Under the pieces are notes generated by a model. That model had not been told where the DNA came from and did not search any database. It saw nothing but the letters and a program-made list of their open reading frames with translations. The translations under genes were made by a program, and so were the position numbers. Positions 1,073-60,864 of a stretch of 64,000 bases of DNA are shown piece after piece (position 1 is the first letter of the stretch; each line of letters begins with the position of its first letter). Source of the stretch: Candidatus Acidiferrales bacterium (GTDB taxonomy: Bacteria; Acidobacteriota; Terriglobia; Acidiferrales; UBA7541); assembly GCA_035933545.1 (NCBI GenBank), contig DASYYQ010000146.1:37668-101667 (forward strand), written 5' to 3'.

Positions 1073-1275
1073 TCATTTCCTCCGCCGCGAACTCAATCTG
1101 CCACTCAACATTCGCAATCCAATATTGAAGATACTGCATCTCCGCGCAATTTCCTAGCCTCGAACACCAGCGCATCGCAAGATTCACCGCGCTTGTGACT
1201 AGCCCTTCGTAGGAGCGGGACTTGCCCCGCCCGCCTTCGTTTGTGCTACAGTCTCACATCAGGGACGTAACGGCG

Positions 1276-3279
1276 ATGCGAACAAGCGCTTGGATTGCCG
1301 CCGCGGTGGGACTCTGCGGATTCTGGATCACGCAGAGATTACCAATTCGGGCAGCCCTCAGTTCTGCGAATCCTCAGACCACGACTAGCGTTAGCGTCGA
1401 AGCAGAAATGAAGGCCGGGGAAGCGGCAGATGCGAAGAAGGATTATGCCACCGCTATGGCTGCTTACCGCAGAGTCATTGAGATGCAGCCGGAAAACATC
1501 GATGCTCATAAACGTTTTGTGATGGCTTCGTGGAGCCAGGCAGAAGTTGAATTCGAGAAGCTCTACGACAACCCGGACTATGAAAAGCTGCGAAAAGGCA
1601 AATTGCACGGCCGAGCGAAGAAAGCCATAGAAGCAGAGTTGAAGAAGGCCAGTGCAGAGAGTAAGGCAGGTGACGACGCGCTGTTGGCAACCTACGACCA
1701 ATGGATCGCCGCCTACCCGAAAATGGCCGTGTTTTATTGGGCCGAAGGCTATGTCCTGCAGATGCTGGAAAAGCCAACCGGAAAGGAAGAGCTATTCCGG
1801 AAGGCGATTTCCCTCGATCCGAAGTTCGCCCCTGCGTACAACTCGATGGCCGGGATCGAATTCGATAAGGGCGACTACGTTAAGCAACGAGAATATCTGC
1901 AACAGGTGATGGAGCTTGACCCCGCGAATGCGGAGGCCGCGCGCGAATTTGCCGAGACATTTCAGTTCACTGACCCCACCGAATTCCGGCAACTTGCGGA
2001 GCGGTACGCTGAACGATTCCCACGCGATAGCGATTGCACTTACCTGTTGTATCAGTTGGAAAACGCCGAACCGCACAATGCTGCGCGCCTAGCCGTTCTT
2101 GAGCGCATGCGACGGAGCTACCTTGATGAACCGGTATCCACTGTAGGCATGGACCAGCCGGACGTCTTCACAGGATGGCTTGAAGACGCGATGATCGATT
2201 TGTTCAACCTCTACGGGCAGAGCAATCCTCAAGAGGCCTTCGACCTCGCGCAGGAGATGCAGAAGCGGACGTGGGCTGACCCGGACTGGAAGAAGGTTGT
2301 GGCGTATCAGCAGAATCTGATGAGGGCGCAACAGTTGATCACTTTAACAAAATACTCAGAGGCCTCAGCACTCTTGCAGCAGCCGTACACGGGCTGGCTC
2401 GTCACGCGTGGGCTCAATCACACGCCCATGGACCTGGCCAAGGCGAAAGCCCTTGCAGGGAATGGCAATATCCAGCAGGCGTTCGACACTTTGGCCGCGG
2501 CATGGATCAAAGCGCCGGATCCGCAACTGAAAGCGGCGTTGCTCAAATGCGGAACAAAGCTGGGAAAAACTTCTGAGCAAGTAGATGATTATGTATGGCA
2601 AAAATGGACCGCAAATGCCAAGAAGATGAAACCTTTTAAGTTGAAGGAGGTACTTAGCGGCAAAAAGATCAAGCTCTCGGATTTTCGCGGCAGAGTAATC
2701 TTGGTCAGTTTCTGGTTCCCTTTATGCGGGCCGTGCCGGGGGGAGATGCCTTACTTTGACGAAGTCGCAAAAAAGTATCAGCCTCAAGGGTTCGTTATTC
2801 TGGCAATCAATGGGATCCCCGTCCAAAATAGCCTCGCGCCAGGCGTCCTGAAAAATTACGACATCATGGGCCTGCAAGTTCCCTCCAACAAATGGGCCAA
2901 GAAGTACGATAACGTCCAGGGTTATCCCACAAATTACCTGCTCGATCCCAAAGGCCGCATCATGGCTCATCCGGACGTACGCAGCGTGGACGCGCTTAAG
3001 ACGCTCGAGAGGCAGATTGATGCGCTCTTAGCACGGGGCCAAGAACAAGTAGTCGCCAACGCACACGCGACTAAGTCGTCGACAGACAACGCCTTTCCGG
3101 CTGCTCTGTCTTTCTACTCCGCCATTCATTTCCTCCGCAACCACCAGCAGGAAATAGCTAAGGAGCGCGCAATCGAGTTACCGAAATATTCTGACCGAAT
3201 TCTTTGTTGGGGTCGGCTCCGAAGCGCGCCAGCACTGCCGCATCGAGTCGCATTTCCGCCACCTGAGCCAGCCAGATAG
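1276..3279 (+). CDS. TPR-repeat protein with C-terminal TlpA/ResA-like thioredoxin-fold domain (CGPC)
   Basis: Long ORF; the ATG at 1276 (MRTSAWIAAAVGLCGFWI, an N-terminal hydrophobic anchor) is preferred over the TTG at 1222. The middle has TPR-like repeats (AYRRVIEMQPENIDAH, FRKAISLDPKFAPAYNSMAGIEF, QQVMELDPANAEA). The C-terminus reads LSDFRGRVILVSFWFPLCGPCRGEMPYFDEVAKKYQPQGFVILAING, a redoxin CxxC motif. Confidence 0.75.
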   Translation: MRTSAWIAAAVGLCGFWITQRLPIRAALSSANPQTTTSVSVEAEMKAGEAADAKKDYATAMAAYRRVIEMQPENIDAHKRFVMASWSQAEVEFEKLYDNPDYEKLRKGKLHGRAKKAIEAELKKASAESKAGDDALLATYDQWIAAYPKMAVFYWAEGYVLQMLEKPTGKEELFRKAISLDPKFAPAYNSMAGIEFDKGDYVKQREYLQQVMELDPANAEAAREFAETFQFTDPTEFRQLAERYAERFPRDSDCTYLLYQLENAEPHNAARLAVLERMRRSYLDEPVSTVGMDQPDVFTGWLEDAMIDLFNLYGQSNPQEAFDLAQEMQKRTWADPDWKKVVAYQQNLMRAQQLITLTKYSEASALLQQPYTGWLVTRGLNHTPMDLAKAKALAGNGNIQQAFDTLAAAWIKAPDPQLKAALLKCGTKLGKTSEQVDDYVWQKWTANAKKMKPFKLKEVLSGKKIKLSDFRGRVILVSFWFPLCGPCRGEMPYFDEVAKKYQPQGFVILAINGIPVQNSLAPGVLKNYDIMGLQVPSNKWAKKYDNVQGYPTNYLLDPKGRIMAHPDVRSVDALKTLERQIDALLARGQEQVVANAHATKSSTDNAFPAALSFYSAIHFLRNHQQEIAKERAIELPKYSDRILCWGRLRSAPALPHRVAFPPPEPAR

Positions 3280-5142: not shown

Positions 5143-7431
5143 ATGATAAAAAAGTTTCATTTTTCGACTCTCGCCGCAATGTTTGTTGTATTTCTCACTT
5201 GCGGCTTTTCGTCCGCCTTCGCGCAATCCAGTTCCGGCAAAGTTTCTGGTTCCATGACGCAGGACATGCGCGAATTCGTCGAAACTCCCGCGATTCCGGG
5301 ATATGAATCCGCGCTCGCCGCAAAAATCAGTGAACGCCTCAGCACCTTTCATCCAAAAACCGACAACCTCGATGACGTCATCGTCACTATCGGCTCCGGC
5401 GGTCCCGTGCGCCTCATCGTCGCACCCATGGACGAGCCCGGCTACGTCGTCAGCAACATCACTTCCGACGGCTATCTCCAGCTTCAACGGCTTCCGCAGT
5501 TCGGCGCTTTGCCGCTTTTCAATGACCTCTATTCCGCGCAGCCAGTCGAACTCCAAACGCCCTCCGGCAAATGGATTCCCGGAGTCGTCGCCGGACTTTC
5601 CATCCATCTCCTCCCCGGCCGCGCCCATCCGCCCGACCCGAACGACATTTCCAACATGTACGTGGACATCGGCGCGACTTCCGCTGCGGACGCGAGCCGC
5701 CTCGGCGCAAAACTGCTCAGCCCGATGGTCATCGATCGCACGCTTTACGACCTCGGTCCCGGCTTCGAAACTTCTCCCGCCATTGGCGACCGTTTCGGCG
5801 ACGTCGCTCTCGTCGAACTTCTTCGCCGCATCGATCCTTCCAAAATTGATGGCACGCTGGTTGTCGCTTTTGTCGCCCAACAATGGGCGGGCGCGCGCGG
5901 CCTTGAGCGCGTTCTTGATGAAGTTCATCCTGACGAGATGGTTTACGTTGGCCGGCTCACCGGCAGCCCGCCAAATCCCGCGGAGCCAACGCTACGCCGC
6001 GCCCCGCGCCGCGAACTTGGCTCCGGCGTCCTCGTCGGCGACCAATCCGCCAGCGACGAATTGTCCGGTTTCGCCGCCACTCTCAAACAGCTCGCGGATA
6101 AAAACAACATTCCGTTCGCCAAAGATTATTCCGCCCCGCTCATTCCGCTCAGCTATCTCGCCCCGCCGCAGATGCCGGAAAAAACTGTTCACATCGGCAT
6201 TCCTATTGCTTGGCCGAATACGCCCGCCGAAATGATCAGCACGAAAGATCTTGCCGATCTGACCAGTTTGCTCGAAGCGTACGTACAAGGCTCCGTCACC
6301 GTCCCGCAACCGGAAGGTGAGCTCATGGGCGTTGTCGGCGTTGTCGGCGGCGTGGTTAGTCGCACGTCGGGCGCACCGCCCACGAACGAGCAAATCCTTT
6401 CGCGCCTCTCGGAGACTTACGGTGTCAGCGACCATGAAGCTGCAGTCCGCGGGATGGTCAAGAGCTTGCTCCCCAAATGGGCCAAGCCCGAAACCGACGA
6501 CGCTGGAAATTTAATCCTGCAACTCGGCACGGCTCCCACTTCCGCCAACGCACCCAGCATGCTTTTCATCGCGCACATGGACGAAATCGGCTACGAAGTG
6601 AAGGAAATCCTCCCCAACGGCCGCCTTGCCGTGGAGACCAAAGGCGGCGGCATGCTCGACTATTATCTCGGACACGCCGCCCTCGTTCACACGGCGCACA
6701 GAGACATTCCTGGGGTGATGGAATTGCCCGACGGCTCGGACGAGCCCGGCTTCAAATGGCCGCGCGGCCGCGCGCTGATGTATCGCGTTGACGTCGGCGC
6801 GCGCTCGCCCGAAGAAGCAGCGCAAATGGGCGTCGCCGTCGGCGATTTTGTGACCATTCCCAAAAGCTATCGCCGCCTCGCCAACGACCGCGCCAATTGC
6901 CGCAGCTTCGACGACCGGGTCGGCGACACTTCGCTCATTTCGGCGGTATGGGCGCTCGGTCCCAATTTCAAAGGCCGCAACGTCACTTTCGTCTGGTCAA
7001 CTGGCGAAGAGCTCGGCCTCGTCGGCGCCGGCAAGCTCGCCGCGCGTCTGGCCGCTGAAGGCAGGGGAAAAGTCCCGCAATACGTTTTCGCCATCGACAC
7101 TTTTGTTAGCTCCGATTCGCCGCTGGAAAATCCGCGCTTCGGCGACGCCAAGCTCGGCGATGGATTTGTCGTTCGTGCCGTAGATAATTCCAACCTCATC
7201 CCGCGCAACCTCGTCGAAAAAGTGGTGCGCATCGCCCGCGCCAACAAGATTCCCGTGCAATATGGAGTCACCGGCGGCGGCAACGACGGCTCGGCGTTTC
7301 TGCGCTACGGCTCGATTGACGTCGCCCTCGGCTGGCCGCTACGTTACTCCCATTCTCCGGGCGAATTGATTAGCCTGCACGACGTGGACGCTTTGGCGCA
7401 CATCGTCGCTGCGCTTTCGCACAGTTGGTAA
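5143..7431 (+). CDS. secreted tandem M42-family (FrvX/TET-like) metallopeptidase with a degenerate N-terminal copy
   Basis: ATG at 5143 is preceded by GGAAGG, and MIKKFHFSTLAAMFVVFLTCGFSSAFAQ is a signal peptide. The C-terminal half has intact M42 motifs: FIAHMDEIGYEV, SFDDRVGD, STGEELGLVGA, FAIDTF, GGGNDGSAF, RYSHSPGE. The N-terminal half is a paralogous copy with these residues replaced. Confidence 0.8.
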   Translation: MIKKFHFSTLAAMFVVFLTCGFSSAFAQSSSGKVSGSMTQDMREFVETPAIPGYESALAAKISERLSTFHPKTDNLDDVIVTIGSGGPVRLIVAPMDEPGYVVSNITSDGYLQLQRLPQFGALPLFNDLYSAQPVELQTPSGKWIPGVVAGLSIHLLPGRAHPPDPNDISNMYVDIGATSAADASRLGAKLLSPMVIDRTLYDLGPGFETSPAIGDRFGDVALVELLRRIDPSKIDGTLVVAFVAQQWAGARGLERVLDEVHPDEMVYVGRLTGSPPNPAEPTLRRAPRRELGSGVLVGDQSASDELSGFAATLKQLADKNNIPFAKDYSAPLIPLSYLAPPQMPEKTVHIGIPIAWPNTPAEMISTKDLADLTSLLEAYVQGSVTVPQPEGELMGVVGVVGGVVSRTSGAPPTNEQILSRLSETYGVSDHEAAVRGMVKSLLPKWAKPETDDAGNLILQLGTAPTSANAPSMLFIAHMDEIGYEVKEILPNGRLAVETKGGGMLDYYLGHAALVHTAHRDIPGVMELPDGSDEPGFKWPRGRALMYRVDVGARSPEEAAQMGVAVGDFVTIPKSYRRLANDRANCRSFDDRVGDTSLISAVWALGPNFKGRNVTFVWSTGEELGLVGAGKLAARLAAEGRGKVPQYVFAIDTFVSSDSPLENPRFGDAKLGDGFVVRAVDNSNLIPRNLVEKVVRIARANKIPVQYGVTGGGNDGSAFLRYGSIDVALGWPLRYSHSPGELISLHDVDALAHIVAALSHSW

Positions 7432-8369: not shown

Positions 8370-8744
8370 GTGAATTCGCAATTCTACCTTGCTCTGGCCG
8401 ACGCGGTTCTGCTCGCGCATCTGCTGTACATCGCCTGGGTGATTTTCGGCGCGCTCTTCACGCGCGGACGTCCGCTGCTAGGGGCGCTCCACATCGCCAC
8501 AATTATCTGGGGCATTATCACTGAAACCACTCCCGCGCCATGCCCGCTGACCACCGCGGAAAATTGGTCCGAAGCGCGCGCTGGCGTCATGCCCTATCAC
8601 GGGCCATTTCTGCTGCACTATTTGGACGCGACCGTTTACCCCAATGTACCGGCGGCGTTGCTGATCACTGTGGCGGTGATCGTGTGCGCTCTCAATTTAC
8701 TGGTCTACGCGCGGCGCATCAAAAATCATCATTCGCTGGGATGA
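8370..8744 (+). CDS. DUF2784-like small integral membrane protein
   Basis: 124 aa with a GTG start and 3-4 hydrophobic helices. LADAVLLAHLLYIAWVIFG...HIATIIWGI...CPLTTAENW resembles DUF2784 proteins. The stop overlaps a possible ATG of the next ORF. Confidence 0.65.
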   Translation: MNSQFYLALADAVLLAHLLYIAWVIFGALFTRGRPLLGALHIATIIWGIITETTPAPCPLTTAENWSEARAGVMPYHGPFLLHYLDATVYPNVPAALLITVAVIVCALNLLVYARRIKNHHSLG

Positions 8745-8830
8745 ATCTTGCGGAGGTTTCCCTGAAGCTCTGGCGCGTCACGCGCGTTGCCCTCATAATA
8801 TCCGGTGGTTTTCTCTGTCTGGAGGCAGCC

Positions 8831-9181
8831 ATGTCGGACAATATTTCGGATTTCGAAAAATTCCGCGCGGAGATGAACAAAGAAATTCTCGGCTGCGGCC
8901 ATCTGGGGATGAAAAGGTTTTTCGCGCTGGACCATCAGGCATACGAATCGGGGGCGCTGCCCGAAAAAACGAAAGAGCTGCTGGGACTGGTGGCCTCCGC
9001 GGTGCTGCGCTGCGACGATTGCATCACCTATCATTTGTTGCGTTGCGCGGAAGAGGGATGGAAGCGCGATGAAGTGATTGACGCGCTCAACGTCGCGCTA
9101 ATTGTGGGAGGCTCGATCGCCATTCCGCACGTGCGCCGCGCCTTTGCGCGCATGCGCGAAATTCCCGCGCTCAAGCCGTAG
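8831..9181 (+). CDS. carboxymuconolactone decarboxylase (AhpD-like) family protein
   Basis: ATG at 8831 is preceded by GGAGG (8821-8825). PEKTKELLGLVASAVLRCDDCITYHL is the AhpD/CMD CxxC...H core. Confidence 0.8.
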   Translation: MSDNISDFEKFRAEMNKEILGCGHLGMKRFFALDHQAYESGALPEKTKELLGLVASAVLRCDDCITYHLLRCAEEGWKRDEVIDALNVALIVGGSIAIPHVRRAFARMREIPALKP

Positions 9182-52258: not shown

Positions 52259-52542
52259 TCGCGGGGCAGACCCTTCGGAGAGTCCACTGGACTATCCTCA
52301 GGGCAAAAAGGAAGGCCGTGAAAATCGGCCACGGTCCCGCCACTGTGATCGGCAGGCGCTGCTCAAACATGGCAGCAGCGCGAAATAGCTCGCAAAGGAT
52401 TTTGCTGCGCGCGAATCAAGAAGTGCGCCGCAAACATAAACCGAGCGCCGAAAGTCAGGAACTTGCGCGAGTCGCGTGACGCAGCTCTCTTCGCGAGAAA
52501 GAGTGCCGCGAGTCGCCCCATGATTTCTCGTGGGGCTTTTTT
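52259..52542 (+). promoter_or_regulatory. cobalamin riboswitch with intrinsic terminator (leader of the B12-uptake operon)
   Basis: The core is AGGGCAAAAAGGAAGGCCGTGAAAATCGGCCACGGTCCCGCCACTGTGA (52300-52348). The B12-box-like segment AAGTCAGGAACTTGC lies at 52451-52465. Candidate P1 pairs CTCGCG (52259-52264) with CGCGAG (52466-52471). A terminator hairpin lies at 52515-52542. Confidence 0.8.
52515..52542 (+). terminator. rho-independent terminator (riboswitch expression platform)
   Basis: GCCCCA (52515-52520) and TGGGGC (52531-52536) form a 6-bp stem with a 10-nt loop, followed by TTTTTT (52537-52542), 14 nt before the ATG at 52556. Confidence 0.6.
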
Positions 52543-52555
52543 ATTGCGCAAGGAA

Positions 52556-53683
52556 ATGCGCCGAATAAAACATCATGCGGTGAGCGTAGCAATTGTGGCG
52601 CTGATTTGCAGTGCGTTCAGTTTTGCGAATGTGCGCGCGCAAGGCCAATTAGCGGTGGCGCAAAAAACTGGAACAGAAAAGGCTATCGGAATGCTAGCGG
52701 CGAAGCGCACCGTGATTGATGAGTCGGGGCGAAAGGTTGAGGTGCCCGCAAACGTGCGGCGCATCGTCACCCTTGCTCCCAACCTCGCCGAGATTGTGTA
52801 CGCGCTCGGCGTGCAAGACCGGCTCGTAGGCGTCTCCAATTTCACCGATTATCCTGTCGCAGCAAGAGCGAAGCCGAGCATCGGCATGCCTGTGAATCCC
52901 AGCCTCGAAGCTATCGTCGGGGCGCACCCCGACGTTGTGCTGGCCACTGCCGTCAACACCTGGGAAACGGTCAACTCGCTGGCGCGCCTGGGGATTGCCG
53001 TCTACACCACGGATCCACACACGGTCGCCGGCATGTTGCGCTCCATCACTGATATTGGCGAAGTGATTGGCGCACGTGAACAGGCGCAAACACTCGTCCA
53101 AAAATTACAAGTGCGTCTGAATGTCCTGCAAGCAAAACTGAAGAATTCTTCGCCTGTGCCCGCGCTTTTTGTTGTCTGGGATCATCCATTGATTTCCGTT
53201 GGAGAAAGCACTTTCATCACTGACGCATTGCGCTTGGCTGGTGCGAGATCCGTCATTCGCACCAAACAAGACTGGCCGCAGGTGAGCATGGAAGAAATCG
53301 TGAAGCTCAATCCCGAATATATTATCTATGCAGACAGTCATATGGGAGCGGGCTCCGGCGGCGATTCCGCGAAACTCGCAAATGTTCCGTCTGCCATCGC
53401 CAAGCATCTGAACCAACTGCGCGCCGATTCAAATTGGCGCGACCTTTCCGCCGTCCGCGAGGGCCACATTGCCGTGGTCAGCGATGAAATCGACGTGCCG
53501 GCGCCGGGACTCATCGACGTCATCGAGCAGTTGACGCAAGAATTGCATCCGCACCTTTTTCAGAAAGAAAACCAATCGTCGCTCAATAATTTCCGGAATT
53601 CCCGGCAAAAGCGGCGCAATACGCCCGCGTTTACCTGTGCCCGCCAAAACATTTCTCCGGGGGCGACGCCTTGCGCTCGCTAA
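52556..53683 (+). CDS. periplasmic substrate-binding protein, BtuF/FhuD (Peripla_BP_2) type
   Basis: Signal peptide MRRIKHHAVSVAIVALICSAFSFANVRAQ. RIVTLAPNLAEIVYALG...LVGVSNFTDYP...PSLEAIVGAHPDVVLA...PEYIIY is the typical BtuF-like layout. It sits behind a cobalamin riboswitch. Confidence 0.8.
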   Translation: MRRIKHHAVSVAIVALICSAFSFANVRAQGQLAVAQKTGTEKAIGMLAAKRTVIDESGRKVEVPANVRRIVTLAPNLAEIVYALGVQDRLVGVSNFTDYPVAARAKPSIGMPVNPSLEAIVGAHPDVVLATAVNTWETVNSLARLGIAVYTTDPHTVAGMLRSITDIGEVIGAREQAQTLVQKLQVRLNVLQAKLKNSSPVPALFVVWDHPLISVGESTFITDALRLAGARSVIRTKQDWPQVSMEEIVKLNPEYIIYADSHMGAGSGGDSAKLANVPSAIAKHLNQLRADSNWRDLSAVREGHIAVVSDEIDVPAPGLIDVIEQLTQELHPHLFQKENQSSLNNFRNSRQKRRNTPAFTCARQNISPGATPCAR

Positions 53684-54687
53684 CGCCGCGGCGCATTGCA
53701 TGGATTTGCGCCGCCCTTGCCGGAATCCTGTTCGTCGTTGTGGTGTTTTCGCTGAAAGTGGGCGCCTATCCCATCGACGTCGGCGACGCAGTAATGACCC
53801 TGGCGCGCGGCGCCGTCGGACATTGGAATGCCATCCCCTCGTCTGACAGGTTAGTGGTTTTTGGTTTGCGCCTGCCGCGCATTGCCCTGGGAATTTTAGT
53901 CGGCGCTGCATTATCCGTGTCCGGCGCATCTTTCCAGGCTCTGCTGCGCAACCCGCTGGCGGATCCGTACGTGCTAGGCGTCTCCAGCGGCGCAGCGCTT
54001 GGCGCGATTTTTTCGCTGGCGTGGTTTCCGCGCGAGCCCTGGACCATGCAGGCCTTGGCATTCGTAGGTGCGCTCGTAACCATCGCCGCCGTTTACTTTC
54101 TGGGGCGGCGCGGTGGCCAACTCGACAGCACCACTTTGTTACTCGCGGGAATTGTGGCCGCATCTTTTCTTTCAGCAATTATTATGTTTCTGATGACCAC
54201 GCTCAGCGGGCGCGACCTGCGCGGAATGGCTTTTTGGCTGATGGGTGATCTTGCCACCGCGCCGGCGGTTCGTCTGGGATTCTTGTTTTTGGTGTTGCTT
54301 CTGACCATTGGCGCCATTTACACCACCGCGTCCGATCTAAATCTAATTTTGACCGGCGAGCAGGAGGCGCGTCATCTCGGCGTGAATGTCCCGCGCGTGA
54401 AGCTGGTAGTGTACGTGGGCGCATCGTTGCTGACGGGTCTCGCCGTATCCGTGAGCGGCGCCATCGGCTACGTTGGACTGCTGATTCCCCACGTGATTCG
54501 CATGATTTTCGGCTCCGATTATCGCCTGCTGATTCCTGCATCAGCGCTCGGCGGCGCCATTGCCGTAACGCTCGCCGACACGCTCGCGCGCACCATTGTT
54601 GCTCCCACGGAACTGCCTGTTGGCGCAATGACCGCGGCGATTGGCGCGCCCGTTTTCATCTATCTTCTGAAGCGGAGACTCGCTTGA
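53671..54687 (+). CDS. FecCD-family ABC permease (BtuC-like)
   Basis: About 10 TM segments. RLPRIALGILVGAALSVSGASFQALLRNPLADPYVLGVSSGAALGA and GAIGYVGLLIPHVIRMIFGSDYRLLIP are FecCD signatures. TTG start overlaps the previous gene. Confidence 0.85.
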   Translation: MRSLTPRRIAWICAALAGILFVVVVFSLKVGAYPIDVGDAVMTLARGAVGHWNAIPSSDRLVVFGLRLPRIALGILVGAALSVSGASFQALLRNPLADPYVLGVSSGAALGAIFSLAWFPREPWTMQALAFVGALVTIAAVYFLGRRGGQLDSTTLLLAGIVAASFLSAIIMFLMTTLSGRDLRGMAFWLMGDLATAPAVRLGFLFLVLLLTIGAIYTTASDLNLILTGEQEARHLGVNVPRVKLVVYVGASLLTGLAVSVSGAIGYVGLLIPHVIRMIFGSDYRLLIPASALGGAIAVTLADTLARTIVAPTELPVGAMTAAIGAPVFIYLLKRRLA

Positions 54688-55580
54688 GCATTTCGCAAAT
54701 GACAACCATGAATTCGAGCGCGGGCACTCTGGCAGGCTGGATGGAACATCCGGTGCGCCTGGTGGTCGAGCAAGCGCAATATGCGTATTTGGCTGCCGCT
54801 CCAACGGCCCCAAAATTTACGCTGGGCCCTGTAAGCTTCACAGCGCGTCAGCGCGAGATCGTCGGAATTCTCGGGCCCAACGCCAGCGGAAAATCCACTC
54901 TCCTACAAATGGTGGCGGGAGAATTCAACGCACTCTCTGGCCGCGTCGAACTCGATGGAAAATCTCTCTGTGCCCTTTCGCTGCGCGAACGCGCCCAGCG
55001 CGTCGCCATTGTGCATCAGGAAAGCAATCTGCTTTTTCCGCTGAGCGTCTGGGAGTACGTGCTGCAAGGAAGGTATCCTTATGGCCGCCGATTGCGCTTC
55101 GAGAATGAAGCGGATCACCTGATGGCGCAAAATGCTCTCGAACAGACCGGCGCGGAAGCTCTGGCCGAGCGCCGCATGGACCAGCTCTCCGGCGGCGAAC
55201 GGCAGCGCGTCGTGCTAGCGCGCGCTCTCGCGCAACAGCCGCAGCTTTTGCTCCTTGATGAGCCAACCCGCCATTTGGATATTGGCGGAAAAGTGGAACT
55301 GATGCGGCGTTTGCGCCGCCTCACTGAGCAGAATCGCTACACGGCTGTCGTCGTCACCCACGAATTGAATCTCGCCGCGCAGTTTTTCGATTTCATTGTG
55401 CTGCTGCACGGCGGCAAATGCGTCGCGGCGGGCAAACCCGACGAAGTCTACCGCGCGGAATTGCTCGAGCAGGTTTTCAGCACGTCGCTGCAAGTCGAAA
55501 GTAGCGCCAACGGCCGCCCGCGCGTCATTTTGCAAGGCGCCGCCGCGGATGGGGATTTGTCAGAAGCAAAAAGCGAATAG
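54684..55580 (+). CDS. ABC transporter ATP-binding protein (BtuD/FecE-like)
   Basis: Walker A GPNASGKST, signature LSGGERQRV, Walker B LLLLDEPTRHLD, H-loop VVVTHELN. The N-terminal ~45 aa are non-canonical and the start is uncertain. Confidence 0.85.
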   Translation: MSISQMTTMNSSAGTLAGWMEHPVRLVVEQAQYAYLAAAPTAPKFTLGPVSFTARQREIVGILGPNASGKSTLLQMVAGEFNALSGRVELDGKSLCALSLRERAQRVAIVHQESNLLFPLSVWEYVLQGRYPYGRRLRFENEADHLMAQNALEQTGAEALAERRMDQLSGGERQRVVLARALAQQPQLLLLDEPTRHLDIGGKVELMRRLRRLTEQNRYTAVVVTHELNLAAQFFDFIVLLHGGKCVAAGKPDEVYRAELLEQVFSTSLQVESSANGRPRVILQGAAADGDLSEAKSE

Positions 55581-55680
55581 CAAACCAAGTTTGGGTTTGA
55601 GCAGGTGCAGTCAATTGAAGCACCGGCGGAGATCGGCTAGCTGAAAAGCGAATCGGCATCCCCTGGAAAAATTCACCACG

Positions 55681-55849
55681 AAACTCCGTGCACGGGAAGG
55701 CGGTGCAAAGCCGCCGCCGCTGCGCGACTGTAAGGCGGAAAAAATCGGGCGCACGTCACTGCGCCGGACGCTTCGTCGAAAGACGCGGCGCCGTTGCGGG
55801 AAGGCCGCGCCAGAAAGAATGCCGCCAAGCCAGGAGACCGGCGGAGTTT
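55681..55849 (+). promoter_or_regulatory. second cobalamin riboswitch (leader of the TonB-dependent receptor)
   Basis: P1 pairs AAACTCCG (55681-55688) with CGGAGTTT (55842-55849). The core is CACGGGAAGGCGGTGCAAAGCCGCCGCCGCTGCGCGACTGTAAGG. The B12 box AAGCCAGGAGACCGGCGG lies at 55827-55844. Confidence 0.85.
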
Positions 55850-55954
55850 CTATCCCGAAGTCGCAAGCTGCGGCGCGGAAGTTCCCGCGCGAAACGCCGC
55901 TTCGCCTTCGGGACAACCTTCACACTCCCGCGCGAGAGGGAGACGGAGGAAACC

Positions 55955-58162
55955 ATGAGACTCTGCGTACAGCAGTTCCTGCGATTCAGTTTTCTTGCAG
56001 TTGCCTTTCTCGGTTTCTCCGCAACCAGCCACGCACAATCGAGCGCTACGCTTTTTGGCCGCGTAACCGACCGCAGCGGCGCGGCTATCGCCAGCGCGAC
56101 AATGATCGCCGAGCCGCTGTCCGCCACACACGCAGCAGAAATTCGCGCGCAGAGCGGTGCGCATGGCGAATATTCGATCATGCTTGGGCCTGGGAAATAC
56201 CGCATCCGCGTCAGCGCATCGCAAATGGCAAATGCGGAAGAGGAGTTCACCTTCAGCGCGGGCCAGCGCCGCGAATGGAACGTGCGCATGGAACTTGCGC
56301 CGCTCTCGTCACAAGTCGTAGTATCCGCAGAAGCAGAGCCCGCGCCGGCGAACACGGTCGCGTCTCCTGTGACCGTCCTTGCGCAACAGCAGATCGACCA
56401 GCGCCAGGTCATTTGGCTCGCCCCGCTCCTCGCCTCCACATCGGGCGCAAATATCGCGCGTCTCGGCCCTATGGGCGGCATCACTTCCTTTTTTCTTGAT
56501 GGCGGTAATTCCGATTTCACCAAAGTGCTCGTCGACGGTACTCCCATAAACGAGCCCGGCGGCGACATCGATCTTTCGAATCTCGATGTGGCCAACATCG
56601 ACAAAATCGAAATCGTGCATGGCGCTTCCAGCGCGCTTTTCGGCTCCGACGCCATGGACGGCGTCGTCCAAATCTTTACTCACCGTGGAACCACGCAAAA
56701 GCCGGCGTTGACGCTTCTCGCCGAAGGCGGAACGTTCAATGCGCAACGCGAACAAGCCGATTTGAGCGGCGTCATTGGCCACTTCGATTATGCGCCGGCA
56801 GTTTCTTATTACGACAGCAACGGTCAGGGCCCCAACGACCGCTTCCGCGACACCACGCTTTCCGGAAATTTTGGCTGGAAATTCAACAGCACAAATCAGC
56901 TCCGCCTTTCCGTCCGCAGCGCCGCAAGCGACGCCGGCCAGCCCGGCCAAACGTTGCTCCTGCCACCGAATCTCGGCCAGTCCTCCGATTTGCACGATTT
57001 CACTGCGAATTTGAGCTGGGATTTTTCTGCTGGCGCGCATTGGCAGGATCATCTCGCAGGCACCGAATCCTATTTCCGCGGCTTCATCATCGATATTCCG
57101 GTATTCACGGAGATTAACCAGTTCAATCGCGCCGGTTTCGAGGAGCAATCCACATATTTATTCGGCCCGGGCGCTGTTTCTCTCGGCTACAACTTCGAGG
57201 TCGAGAATGGATCCTCGGCCGGCCCGCACGAACGCAGAAACAATCAGGGTGGCTACATCGAAACGCATTACACATTTGGCCGCCGCCTAACCGCCGTTGC
57301 TGGCGCCCGCGCCGAAGCGAACGCTAGTTTCGGTACGCGCGTTGTCCCGCGAATCGGGCTCGCCTATCTTGCGCGATTCGGTCGCGGTTTCTGGGGCGAA
57401 ACGCGCCTGCGCTCTTCCTACGGCTTGGGCATCAAGGAGCCAACCTTCACGCAATCCTTCGAGGCCGATCCCTGTTTTCCGGGCAATCCAAATTTGAAGC
57501 CGGAGCGCAGCAACACCTTCAACGCCGGCATCGATCAGACTCTTGCGCAAGAGCGGGTGAAATTCTCGGCAACGTTTTTCCGCAACGAATTCCGCGACGT
57601 TGTCAGCTTCGCATCATGTTTTCCCGGCTCACCGTGCGGCTTTCCCGTTCCTCCAGGATGTCCTGCGGCAGAACTGAACGCCGACGGCTACGGAACATTT
57701 TTTAATACGGATGCGGCGCGAGCCTTTGGCGCAAGCGCGCAAATTGAAGCGCAGCCGCTTCCCTGGCTCAACATTATTGGAAATTACACTTACGACGATA
57801 CGCGCGTCCTGAAAGCGCCGAATTTTTTCGATCCTACGCAGGCCCCAGGAAATCGCCTGTTTCTTCGGCCTTTGCATTCCGCGAATTTGATTTTGAATGC
57901 CGCCTTCCGCCACATGGATTGGAATTTGGCCGGATATTTCGTAGGCCGCGAAACAGACAGCGATTTTCTTGGATTCGGATTCATCAGCAATCCCAGCCAC
58001 TTTCGCCTCGACTTGGGGACGCAATTCTCGCTGACGCACGGATTTGTCGTCCTCGCGCGCGCGCAAAATCTGCTCGACCATAGATATTCAGACGCCGTCG
58101 GCTATCCCGCTCTCGGCCTGAATTATTTGGCAGGCGTGAAATACGCCTGGGGCGGAAAGTAG
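55955..58162 (+). CDS. TonB-dependent outer-membrane receptor (BtuB-like function inferred), with CarboxypepD_reg-like N-terminal domain
   Basis: ATG at 55955 lies after GGAGG. Signal peptide MRLCVQQFLRFSFLAVAFLGFSATSHAQ. FGRVTDRSGAAIASATM is the CarboxypepD_reg-like segment. Plug motifs are IARLGPMGGITSFFLDGGNSDFTKVLVDGTPINEPGG and IEIVHGASSALFGSDAMDGVVQI. The terminal barrel strand is ...GLNYLAGVKYAWGGK. The first 89 codons of the track ORF cover the riboswitch and are discarded. Confidence 0.85.
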   Translation: MRLCVQQFLRFSFLAVAFLGFSATSHAQSSATLFGRVTDRSGAAIASATMIAEPLSATHAAEIRAQSGAHGEYSIMLGPGKYRIRVSASQMANAEEEFTFSAGQRREWNVRMELAPLSSQVVVSAEAEPAPANTVASPVTVLAQQQIDQRQVIWLAPLLASTSGANIARLGPMGGITSFFLDGGNSDFTKVLVDGTPINEPGGDIDLSNLDVANIDKIEIVHGASSALFGSDAMDGVVQIFTHRGTTQKPALTLLAEGGTFNAQREQADLSGVIGHFDYAPAVSYYDSNGQGPNDRFRDTTLSGNFGWKFNSTNQLRLSVRSAASDAGQPGQTLLLPPNLGQSSDLHDFTANLSWDFSAGAHWQDHLAGTESYFRGFIIDIPVFTEINQFNRAGFEEQSTYLFGPGAVSLGYNFEVENGSSAGPHERRNNQGGYIETHYTFGRRLTAVAGARAEANASFGTRVVPRIGLAYLARFGRGFWGETRLRSSYGLGIKEPTFTQSFEADPCFPGNPNLKPERSNTFNAGIDQTLAQERVKFSATFFRNEFRDVVSFASCFPGSPCGFPVPPGCPAAELNADGYGTFFNTDAARAFGASAQIEAQPLPWLNIIGNYTYDDTRVLKAPNFFDPTQAPGNRLFLRPLHSANLILNAAFRHMDWNLAGYFVGRETDSDFLGFGFISNPSHFRLDLGTQFSLTHGFVVLARAQNLLDHRYSDAVGYPALGLNYLAGVKYAWGGK

Positions 58163-58268: not shown

Positions 58269-59783
58269 ATGAGCGCGACGAACTCAAGAACGACAACGGC
58301 AAACGCGGAAGGCACGTCGCGCGTCTCCGCCGAACTGCGTTCCCGCTACGAATGCGTCGCCGGCCTCGAAGTACACGTGCAACTCGCGACGGCCACGAAA
58401 GCGTTTTGTGCGTGCTCCACGCGATTCGGCGATCCGCCAAATACAAATGTCTGCCCCGTTTGCTTGGGCTTGCCGGGTGCATTACCTGTGCTCAATGGGC
58501 GCGCCCTTGAGCTGGCGACGAAGGCCGCGCTAGCGCTGCATTGCGATGTGCAGCAGCGTTCGCGGTTCGCGCGCAAAAATTATTTTTATCCCGATTTGCC
58601 GAAGGGCTATCAAATTTCGCAATATGAGCTGCCGCTTGCTACGGGAGGCTGGCTCGAAATCGAAATCAGCGGCGCCAAAAAGCGCATCGGCATTACCCGC
58701 CTGCACATGGAAGAGGACGCAGCGAAAAATTTACACGAAGGCTTCACCGACGCTGCCGAATACAGCCATATTGATTTCAACCGCTGCGGTGTGCCGCTCA
58801 TCGAAATCGTCAGCGAGCCCGACATTCGTTCGCCGGAAGAAGCCTACGCATATTTGACCACTTTGAAACAGGCGCTCGAATATACCCAGGTTAGCGATTG
58901 CAATATGGAATCAGGCTCGCTCCGCTGCGACGCTAACGTCAGCGTGCGTCTACACGGCTCCGATAAGTTTGGAACGAAAGTTGAAGTAAAGAATCTGAAT
59001 TCGTTCCGTTATTTGACTCATGCATTCGAGTACGAAATTGACCGTCAGATCGGCGTTCTCGAATCGGGCGGAAGCGTCTCTCAAGAAACGCGCCTGTGGG
59101 ACGTCGCAACGGACCGCACGGAGCCGATGCGCTCTAAGGAATTTGCGCATGATTATCGCTATTTCCCCGAGCCCGATTTGCTGCCGGTGGAAATCACCGA
59201 GGCGCGAAAGCGCACCATTCTTGGTGACATGCCGGAGCTTTCCGATGCCAAGCGTGCCCGCTTTTTGGCCGAATACGGACTCAGTGCTTACGACGCAGGG
59301 GTGCTAACCGCAACCACAGCGCTTGCGGATTATTTCGAATCAGCTGTTCGGGCTGGTGCGTCGCCGAAAACCGCGGCCAACTGGATTCAAACAGAATTGT
59401 TGCGCCGTTTAAATGACGCTAACAAAGGTATTTCACACTCGCCGGTTCAGCCCGAAGAGCTCGCGGATTTGTTGCGGCGCGTCGAGAGCGGCGAAATCAC
59501 CGGAGCCATCGGCAAGCGCGTCTTTGCCAAAATGTTCGGAACCGGAAAATCAGCGGGCGAAATTATCACCACAGAAGGCCTTTCGCCCATCAGCGATACG
59601 GCCGCCGTGGAGAAGGTCTGCCGTGAGGTCATTGCGAAAAATGCTGACAATGTGGCGAAGTATCGCGCAGGCAACGAAGGAGTATTCAAATTTTTCGTAG
59701 GCCAGGTGATGAAAGAAACCAGGGGCCGCGCCAATCCGCAAGCGGTGAATGAAATTCTGGCTAGATTGTTGCAGCAGACATAG
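58269..59783 (+). CDS. gatB: Asp-tRNA(Asn)/Glu-tRNA(Gln) amidotransferase subunit B
   Basis: [13 protein letters not shown]...TKAFCAC...[21 protein letters not shown]...[19 protein letters not shown]...EEDAAKN is canonical GatB. A C-terminal YqeY-like tail is present. Confidence 0.9.
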
Positions 59784-59796
59784 AGGTGAGGACCAA

Positions 59797-60267
59797 ATGA
59801 GCGAGCTACTCAAGGTCGGCGAACGAGCGCCGGACTTCAAATTGAAAGCTGACGATGGAAGAGACATTGCCCTCAAGGATTTTCGCGGTAAAAATGTTGT
59901 GCTGTATTTCTTTCCGAAGGCTATGACCCCTGGTTGAACCAACGAAGCGTCCGAGTTTCGCGACGCGAAGAAGAAGTTCGACAAGCTGAACACTGTGATT
60001 CTGGGGTGCAGCGCGGATTCCGTCGAGCGCCAGGCAAAATTCAAAGAGAAATACAATTTAAATTTCGCACTGCTCTCCGATCCGAAATTCGAGGTGATCG
60101 AAGCCTACGGCGCGCGCAGAATGAAAAGTTTCCTGGGAAAATCTTTTCTCGGAATCGTGCGCATGTCTTATTGGATTAGTCCTGAGGGTAAAATTCAGTA
60201 CGTGTGGGATAAAGCGCCGTCGAAAGGCCACGCCGCCGAAGTGCTCGAAGAAATCAGCCGGAGTTGA
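59797..60267 (+). CDS. bcp: Bcp/PrxQ-type peroxiredoxin with in-frame TGA (putative selenocysteine) at codon 47
   Basis: ATG at 59797 lies after GAGGTGAGG. Track ORFs 59749..59937 and 59995..60267 are in the same frame and are separated only by the TGA at 59935-59937. The joined product is [46 protein letters not shown][TGA]TNEASEFRD...[11 protein letters not shown]...NFALLSDP.... This aligns with E. coli Bcp ...VLVYFYPKAMTPGCTVQAC..., placing the TGA on the peroxidatic Cys. Confidence 0.65.
59947..59966 (+). other. candidate bacterial SECIS hairpin downstream of the in-frame UGA
   Basis: GCGUC-CGA-[GUU]-UCG-(C)-GACGC forms 8 bp with one bulged C and a 3-nt apical loop containing GU. The loop G lies 17 nt after the UGA. 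This was found by manual pairing only. Confidence 0.4.
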
Positions 60268-60294
60268 AAGCCGCATCGAGCGTCAAACGCGGTT

Positions 60295-60864
60295 TTATTT
60301 CACCTGAACCGGCGCTTTCAGCCGGAAGCTCAACACCGTATTCGACGGGTAATAAACGTCGGCTATTCCCTGCGATGAGATTGAATCTGCGTTCTCATTT
60401 CCAGCCGCAGCGCCTCCCGAAGCAGCAGTTCTTCTGTCCGTGGCTTTTGCTTTTACTGGCGTTCCAGTCGCGCCGGCGACGCCCGCGTTTGTTGGGGTGT
60501 CGTTCTCCGGCTGTGGCGGCTCGCCGGCATAGTGGGCCGAAACTGGATAGGCGCGTCCTCCTACGGTGATTGCGTCGAGACGCAGGACGAGCACGGCCGG
60601 CTTGGACGAATCGCCTCCGGGCTGCGCTTTAGCGACGTAAACCGCGGCTGGCGCGCCTTTCGGAAGCAAAACGTCTCCGTCCACCACCACGTCTTTAGCC
60701 ACGCTGGCTTTCACACGTTGATTGTGTTTCGCGTTCTTCGAACTAATGGCTTGATCAAGAATAATCATGATATCCGTATTTGGCGGAATGGTTTGCGCAA
60801 ACACCGGAGCTGAAAACAAGAGTGCGCAAGAGAAAATCACTAGCGAGGAAGGAAGGATTCGCAT
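60295..60864 (-). CDS. secreted hypothetical protein
   Basis: Start at MRILPSSLVIFSCALLFSAPVFAQ (signal peptide). The body is beta-rich with a low-complexity Gly/Ala/Thr linker. I recognise no family. Confidence 0.5.
   Translation of the reverse strand: MRILPSSLVIFSCALLFSAPVFAQTIPPNTDIMIILDQAISSKNAKHNQRVKASVAKDVVVDGDVLLPKGAPAAVYVAKAQPGGDSSKPAVLVLRLDAITVGGRAYPVSAHYAGEPPQPENDTPTNAGVAGATGTPVKAKATDRRTAASGGAAAGNENADSISSQGIADVYYPSNTVLSFRLKAPVQVK

Follow-up and report, generated by a model that had tools for sequence, protein, structure and literature searches.

Directly downstream from gatB, in the 64-kb stretch of DNA that was analyzed and is here called the window, lies a bcp gene whose reading frame contains a TGA codon followed closely by a candidate RNA hairpin. 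The features of this locus are as follows.

58269-59783, + strand: gatB, ending with the stop codon TAG at 59781-59783; bcp starts 13 nt downstream.
59783-59791, + strand: Shine-Dalgarno-like GAGGTGAGG of putative function, read from the sequence; it shares its first base with the last base of the gatB TAG and ends 5 nt before the ATG.
59797-60267, + strand: predicted complete coding sequence of a 156-residue peroxiredoxin of the Bcp/PrxQ type in which Sec occupies residue 47, assigned from profiles, alignments, orthologs, and dN/dS.
Pro40, Thr44, Sec47, and Arg122, encoded on the + strand: predicted catalytic set of the bcp product, from alignment with homologs.
59935-59937, + strand: in-frame UGA, predicted to be read as Sec (the peroxidatic residue), from alignment to the peroxidatic Cys and from TGA in relatives.
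59947-59966, + strand: SECIS-type hairpin within the coding sequence, assigned from its fold energy, frozen synonymous sites, and the same loop in divergent clades.
60265-60267, + strand: true stop TGA of bcp, from the sequence and from a post-Sec length of 107-118 codons in 74 of 74 TGA-bearing genome orthologs.

Translation from the ATG at 59797 to the TGA that ends at 60267 gives one + strand frame of 156 codons with a single internal TGA at 59935-59937. This codon is preceded by 46 codons and followed by 109, and the frame then closes with the stop TGA at 60265-60267, having met no other stop or frameshift. The C-terminal end of the joined translation reads EEISRS. In the ORF list, the same frame appears as two separate entries, at 59749..59937 (62 aa) and 59995..60267 (90 aa). 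The initial annotation had described two ORFs in one frame that are interrupted by this TGA alone, with about 110 codons after it that are free of stops and frameshifts, and both the ORF list and the translation bear this out. A scan of positions 59600-60500 found no promoter-like or terminator-like sites.

The joined protein, in which Cys was substituted for the TGA, was used for profile searches. It matched positions 1-124 of the 124 in the Pfam AhpC-TSA model (PF00578; E = 5.3e-38), and the matching segment, residues 7-136, spans the TGA. The NCBIfam equivalog model for Bcp, a thioredoxin-dependent thiol peroxidase (NF006960), was matched from 3 to 153 of its 156 positions, and the score of 157.2 bits exceeded the cut-off of 140. 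The PrxU, AhpC, Tpx, and Prx-SUH models, which represent other Prx subfamilies, gave scores far under their cut-offs. The PrxU model (NF040737) yielded 44.8 bits against a cut-off of 270, which places the protein outside that subfamily, and the Prx-SUH model (NF045827) yielded 20.3 bits against a cut-off of 298. The nearest solved structures are those of Bcp proteins (5enu, 3drn, 5iph, and 3gkk), with E-values down to 1.8e-27.

In these solved Bcp structures, the residue that aligns with the TGA is the Cys of YFYPKDNTPGCT. The same column is Cys in all 16 of the closest full-length database homologs, which come from Acidobacteriota and are 64-71% identical to the window protein in the alignment. 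Pro40, Thr44, Gly46, and Arg122 are invariant across the window protein and these homologs. The claim in the initial annotation that the TGA replaces the peroxidatic Cys is therefore well founded: as judged by alignment, the catalytic site is complete except that a stop codon stands precisely where the peroxidatic residue belongs. When 5.8 billion proteins were searched, Cys forms alone were returned, at no more than 73% identity.

Atypical 2-Cys Bcp proteins of the E. coli type carry a resolving Cys five residues after the peroxidatic one. The window protein has Ser at +5 (TNEAS), and the initial annotation was correct that this resolving Cys is missing. Because 1-Cys Bcp proteins exist, its absence does not exclude membership in the Bcp/PrxQ group. 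Cys is found at +5 in 42 of 120 metagenome relatives, among the matches listed. The window protein also has Cys71 (in GCSADS), which is present in 88% of Sec orthologs and is Ala or Gly in 12%.

Several other genes and RNA elements were observed in the window. The + strand gene at 1222-3279 encodes a 685-residue protein with N-terminal TPR repeats and a C-terminal AhpC/TSA (redoxin) domain, and it would be the second thiol-peroxidase-like gene of the window. At 8522-9181 (+ strand) there is a CMD/AhpD-like gene with a CxxC motif (RCDDC); in the same frame, ahead of the listed ORF, a TGA stands at 8522. This TGA was considered as a Sec codon and rejected, the upstream frame being Arg-rich nonsense; translation of the gene probably begins at the Met of MSDNISDFEKF. 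Open frames joined by TGA were also listed blindly in a search for other selenoproteins, and this list was set aside as too noisy in DNA of 57% GC. Finally, two cobalamin riboswitches (Rfam RF00174) are located on the + strand at 52282-52466 and 55669-55860, with scores of 41.3 and 74.3 bits. A Peripla_BP_2/FecCD/ABC_tran operon (52463-55580) follows the first of them, and a gene for a TonB-dependent receptor (55688-58162) follows the second. Together, from their domain content and order, these elements look like a B12 uptake system.

Orthologs of bcp were sought among GTDB representatives, at one genome per species, by using only the 109 residues after the TGA as the query. The search returned 80 loci with 67-96% amino acid identity, nearly all from MAGs of Ca. 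Acidiferrales, Terriglobia, and unclassified Acidobacteriota. One locus is without the upstream part of the gene, leaving 79 that were scored at the peroxidatic column. Of these 79 loci, 66 have gatB directly upstream of bcp, and 77 have a downstream panC in the opposite orientation. Because the gatB-bcp-panC locus is common to most of them, these genome relatives are orthologs.

Among these closest scorable species-representative genomes, 74 of 79 have TGA at the peroxidatic column, and the remaining five have TGC. The TGA carriers include contig DATGHO010000001.1, whose Bcp is 96% identical, and the large contigs CAWESU010000001.1 (3.35 Mb) and CAVTRV010000002.1 (3.73 Mb). A comparison of Cys and TGA at this column was one of the checks that the initial annotation had proposed for its own reading, and the outcome favors that reading. 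Metagenomes were searched with a degenerate DNA pattern for F-[FY]-P-K-x-x-T-x-G-TGA-x-x-E-[AG], and this TGA-containing pattern recovered at least 120 contigs with TGA at the peroxidatic column. Among the matches listed, the Bcp-like genes are diverse, with 29-76% identity to the window in the region surrounding the active site.

The hairpin at 59947-59966 consists of the 5' arm GCGUCCGA (59947-59954), a GUU loop (59955-59957), and the 3' arm UCG-C-GACGC (59958-59966), from which C59961 is bulged. The spacing between the UGA and the loop is 17 nt. In the bSECIS consensus, a small apical loop with G in its first two positions, often followed there by G or U, is located 16-37 nt from the UGA (PMC13188914). 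Both the GUU loop and the 17-nt spacing of the window hairpin fit this description, and the conserved downstream hairpin that the initial annotation had proposed to look for is thus present. The hairpin has a fold energy of -10.2 kcal/mol (z = -2.09). The whole 66-nt segment after the UGA folds no better than shuffled sequences (z = -0.20), and it is the local hairpin alone that stands out in folding.

Codon usage in this region is unusually constrained. In a set of 74 sequences (73 genomes and the window), third-position entropy is zero at codons +4 to +6 and at codon +9 (GCG UCC GAG, and GAC), and only one variant sequence each is found at codons +3 (GAA) and +7 (UUU). The third base of codon +8, which is exactly the bulged nucleotide, does vary (C in 46 sequences and T in 28), as does the base just past the stem. 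Outside this region, third-position entropy amounts to 0.8-1.8 bits at codons whose residues are invariant (Pro-7, Lys-6, Ala-5, Thr-3, Gly+23, and Asp+27).

A broader collection of 175 distinct Sec-Bcp sequences, drawn from genomes and metagenomes, shows the same preference for a hairpin at this site. A stem of at least 6 bp that closes a 3-nt loop at nt 21-23 occurs in 73% of these sequences, compared with 0-10% for any other register. The mean stem length is 6.25 bp, versus 2.19 bp when synonymous codons are randomized, and the loop is GUU in 151 of the 175. Divergent clades preserve this geometry with other stems, including GGUUGCGG-GUU-CCGCGACC, GGUUCCGG-GUU-CCGGGACC, GCUCUUGA-GUU-UCAAGAGU, and CCCGCGA-GUU-UCGCGGG. 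On the basis of the frozen synonymous sites, the register-specific stems, and the variation of stems among clades, the hairpin RNA itself is under selection.

When pairs were counted in a fixed register across 57 heterogeneous sequences, the signal was modest, with 67.5% of cells paired compared with 63.1% after shuffling. Double changes numbered 31, against 13 in shuffled data, and none of 500 shuffles reached this value; slid controls were lower in the percentage paired. The modest strength of the fixed-register signal arises because clades differ in the position of the bulge and in register, and because some use a second type of hairpin; the tests with flexible register and with synonymous randomization told more. 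The second type belongs to Sec-Bcp genes from the …UT[IV]EG[QK]xLRDEF… clade (L013, L032, L051, L084, L106, L107, L109, L115, and L121), where it occupies nt 13-40 past the UGA. It has a stem like GGAACUC/GAGUUCC and a 6-nt loop, CGGGAU or CGUGAU, that begins 21 nt after the UGA.

Genes with Cys at the peroxidatic column fall into two groups with respect to the hairpin. Cys paralogs and a separate Cys clade (L206 and L209) do not have the GUU hairpin, and their stems are 0-5 bp. Three TGC forms that are nested in the Sec clade retain the full hairpin of 8 bp; their Cys codons are at locus positions 3060 (L131), 5995 (L161), and 5995 (L181). Their placement and intact hairpins suggest recent replacement of Sec by Cys.

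A Cys-type Bcp paralog is also found in tandem, directly upstream of the Sec-type gene, in loci L020, L176, L179, L180, L186, L193, L194, L200, and L201. This tandem paralog (…PKANTPG-C-IHEANGFRN…) occurs in a subclade of Acidobacteriota, on the same strand, with some 580 nt separating it from the Sec codon that follows (in L176 it is near 5424). The tandem copy is without the GUU hairpin and has a stem of 3 bp.

Sec decoding requires its own genes, and these were looked for in the window and in related loci. ARAGORN and Rfam found no tRNA-Sec in the 64-kb window, and Pfam scans found no SelA, SelB, or SelD among 50 window ORFs. Likewise, no tRNA-Sec, SelA, SelB, or SelD was found by ARAGORN and tblastn in 1.6 Mb of fetched related loci. 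The tblastn probes were SelA and SelB of Solibacter (supplement, PMC1794560) and an approximate sequence of E. coli SelD. The supplement of a 2006 survey lists SelA, SelB, and two FdhA proteins containing Sec for Solibacter usitatus, and the survey itself counted 4 selenoproteins in 3 families for all Acidobacteria (PMC1794560). Homologs of Solibacter SelA proved to be very numerous in soil Acidobacteriota data when databases were searched, and none of the SelA proteins from that search was linked to a genome carrying this bcp. From the Solibacter genes and the soil SelA homologs, it can be concluded that Acidobacteriota, at the level of the lineage, decode Sec. TGA is not reassigned in this genome: as an ordinary stop codon it is used more often than any other in the window, where it ends 19 of 42 Pfam-supported ORFs.

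These results bear most directly on the possibility that the UGA is read through without Sec-tRNA(Sec). The hairpin might stimulate decoding by a near-cognate Trp, Cys, or Arg tRNA, or tRNA(Sec) might be charged with Cys under selenium shortage. As a general matter, hairpins can promote read-through of stop codons, and the lack of Sec machinery in the window and in the 1.6 Mb of related loci is in keeping with such a process. However, catalysis at the position of the TGA needs a nucleophile of the Cys or Sec type, and the column holds only TGA (74) and TGC (5) in the 79 orthologs. Furthermore, the hairpin has the specific features of a bSECIS, namely a small loop that starts with G-U and lies 17 nt from the UGA, and Prx is already a catalogued selenoprotein family. 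We consider read-through by these other routes to be very unlikely.

The part of the gene that follows the TGA has remained intact in relatives. All 74 of the TGA-bearing genome orthologs have 107-118 open codons after this position. Over 100 codons after the TGA, dN/dS relative to the window nowhere exceeds 0.189 and has its median at 0.105, with dS values of about 0.3-1.7. Thus, this part of the gene is under purifying selection. Similarly, the metagenome matches listed include 105 contigs in which the 3' part is complete, and in 104 of these the frame runs on past the TGA for at least 90 codons. The sole premature stop among the matches listed is located 46 codons after Sec in L043 (contig Ga0137360_10145487, with the TGA at strand position 51), and it may represent a real pseudogene or an assembly error.

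A change of one base is sufficient to convert a Cys codon (TGC or TGT) to TGA, and one could propose that the gene was inactivated in this manner and is now dead or dying. Such a proposal agrees with the fact that gene callers see two fragments and that all full-length homologs in protein databases have Cys. We nevertheless judge it to be highly improbable, as did the initial annotation when it argued that this is not a decaying pseudogene. TGA has been kept at the same locus in 74 species-level genomes with no further stop or frameshift, dN/dS after this codon is about 0.1, and the synonymous sites of the hairpin are frozen. The orthologs are also not assembly copies of one sequence, given that dS ranges from 0.3 to 1.7.

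The 46-aa fragment that ends at the TGA was found on 11 contigs from independent soil samples. Public gene calls on those contigs divide bcp into 46-aa and 90-aa 'genes', which is the kind of split that the initial annotation had foreseen for automated annotation. Identity to the window is 509/511 and 510/511 in two longer contigs, which thus represent the same species; identity of this degree excludes a read error, not a fixed pseudogene. Exact-sequence look-ups of the 90-aa fragment and of GatB gave no match because related strains differ by single residues. Among Logan contigs (L003-L009), 7 of 9 places with the 46-aa fragment end 21-24 nt after the TGA, inside the SECIS block. This block is nucleotide-identical across species, and the breaks are therefore probably assembly-graph branch points created by a stretch of about 27 nt that species have in common.

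Taken at face value, the public gene calls would correspond to two products: an N-terminal peptide of 46 residues and a 90-residue protein whose translation is re-initiated at GTG 59995. Yet neither piece is a complete Prx fold, and the Pfam model covers residues 7-136 across the TGA. Moreover, the 19 codons that extend from the TGA to this GTG are the most conserved part of the gene in both protein and nucleotide sequence, and production of two separate polypeptides is accordingly very doubtful. Least probable of all is a sequencing or assembly error for TGC or TGT, which is favored by prior probability alone and is opposed by the identical TGA on 11 independently assembled contigs from different samples, as well as by TGA in 74 other genomes and in at least 120 metagenome contigs.

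We are left with a reading that we hold to be very probable, in which the locus is a single functional Bcp/PrxQ gene that uses SECIS and SelB to place a peroxidatic Sec at the UGA, and that yields a 1-Sec peroxidase. The integrity of the gene, the Sec/Cys column, purifying selection, the constrained RNA hairpin, and orthology are direct observations; from these we infer decoding by SelB and tRNA-Sec in this organism, the peroxidase activity, and the recycling route. The central proposal of the initial annotation, that this gene is read through as Sec, is thereby supported by comparative sequence evidence.

If this reading is correct, the hairpin at 59947-59966 would act in translation as a bacterial SECIS. 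It would be bound by SelB-GTP-Sec-tRNA(Sec), and Sec would be delivered to the UGA at 59935-59937. The ribosome would then continue to the stop codon at 60265 to produce an enzyme of 156 residues. Activated by Pro40, Thr44, and Arg122, the selenolate at residue 47 would reduce hydroperoxides and be converted to a selenenic acid. Because Ser is present at +5 and the only other conserved Cys, Cys71, gives way to Ala or Gly in some Sec orthologs, the window enzyme most likely functions as a 1-Sec peroxidase, with direct recycling by an external thiol reductant such as thioredoxin, glutaredoxin, or a similar molecule.

A broader proposal is that Sec is the default form of Bcp in an order-level soil lineage composed of Ca. 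Acidiferrales and neighboring Terriglobia, where the 1-Sec enzyme, with no resolving Cys, would be fixed at the gatB-bcp-panC locus and systematically absent from protein databases. We regard the chances of this broader proposal as evenly balanced. If true, soils would harbor a large unannotated component of the selenoproteome, and selenium supply would constrain peroxide defense in one of the most abundant soil phyla. The split gene calls and the Cys-only protein matches mean that surveys of peroxide defense or selenium use in soil Acidobacteriota miss this gene when they are based on predicted proteins.

The main value of the finding lies in the correction of annotations and in a marker for selenium use by soil Acidobacteriota. 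The SECIS block GAAGCGUCCGAGUUUCGYGAC, together with the recurring GUU loop 17 nt past the UGA, would provide a simple and specific marker for gene finding. Biologically, nothing here is categorically new, since Sec in place of Cys in Prx is a textbook example. What may go beyond published work is the near-fixed Sec form at gatB-panC across Ca. Acidiferrales and related Terriglobia, which is unseen in protein databases. We found no discussion of the Acidiferrales/Terriglobia clade or of the fixed gatB-panC position in the selenoproteome literature that was compared.

Sec-containing Prx proteins with a TxxU motif (COG1225, PF00578) have been catalogued as a bacterial selenoprotein family since 2004-2005 (Kryukov/Zhang/Gladyshev surveys). 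In the Sargasso Sea set, where 43 of its genes were counted under COG1225, this Prx (TxxU) family ranked second in abundance. It was represented in the genomes of 2006 by 12 genes and five inferred Cys-to-Sec events (PMC1794560), had grown by 2016 to 91 genes in 78 organisms, and is listed in a 2026 review (PMC13188914). We found no dedicated paper on selenocysteine in PrxQ or the bacterioferritin comigratory protein, the family being catalogued as 'Prx (TxxU)'. Like members of this family, the window gene encodes an AhpC/TSA fold whose PxxxTxxU site carries Sec where the widespread Cys homologs have the peroxidatic Cys, and a SECIS hairpin follows closely behind its UGA. COG1225 is the COG of Bcp. 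Judged by motif and profile, the window gene is a Bcp-type member of the TxxU group.

Other selenoproteins with a related fold are more distant. PrxU of Eubacterium acidaminophilum is an experimentally supported precedent for a Sec-containing Prx (Sohling et al. 2001, cited in PMC13188914). PrxU (NF040737) likewise has Sec at the peroxidatic position, but it belongs to a different Prx subfamily from the window protein. The UxxC Prx-like oxidoreductases and Prx-SUH (CxxU, NF045827) are also thioredoxin-fold selenoproteins that match PF00578, although their UxxC and CxxU redox motifs differ from the TxxU of the window protein. Membership in the UxxC 'Prx-like' family was considered for the window gene and rejected on the basis of its TxxU motif.

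Cys-type Bcp/PrxQ proteins (E. coli Bcp, NF006960) share with the window protein its length, the ...PK..TPG[C/U]T... block, and the conserved Arg. The window gene differs by having Sec in place of the peroxidatic Cys and an RNA hairpin inside its coding sequence, and its product is distinguished from the atypical 2-Cys Bcp of the E. coli type by the absence of a resolving Cys at +5. The hairpin itself is most readily compared with the SECIS elements of the E. coli fdhF/fdnG type. Both are located within a coding sequence about 10 nt past the UGA, and both have a small G-U loop and one bulged base. In contrast to the E. coli elements, the window hairpin has an unrelated stem sequence, a 3-nt GUU loop, and a bulge on the 3' arm, and it constitutes a putative site for SelB.
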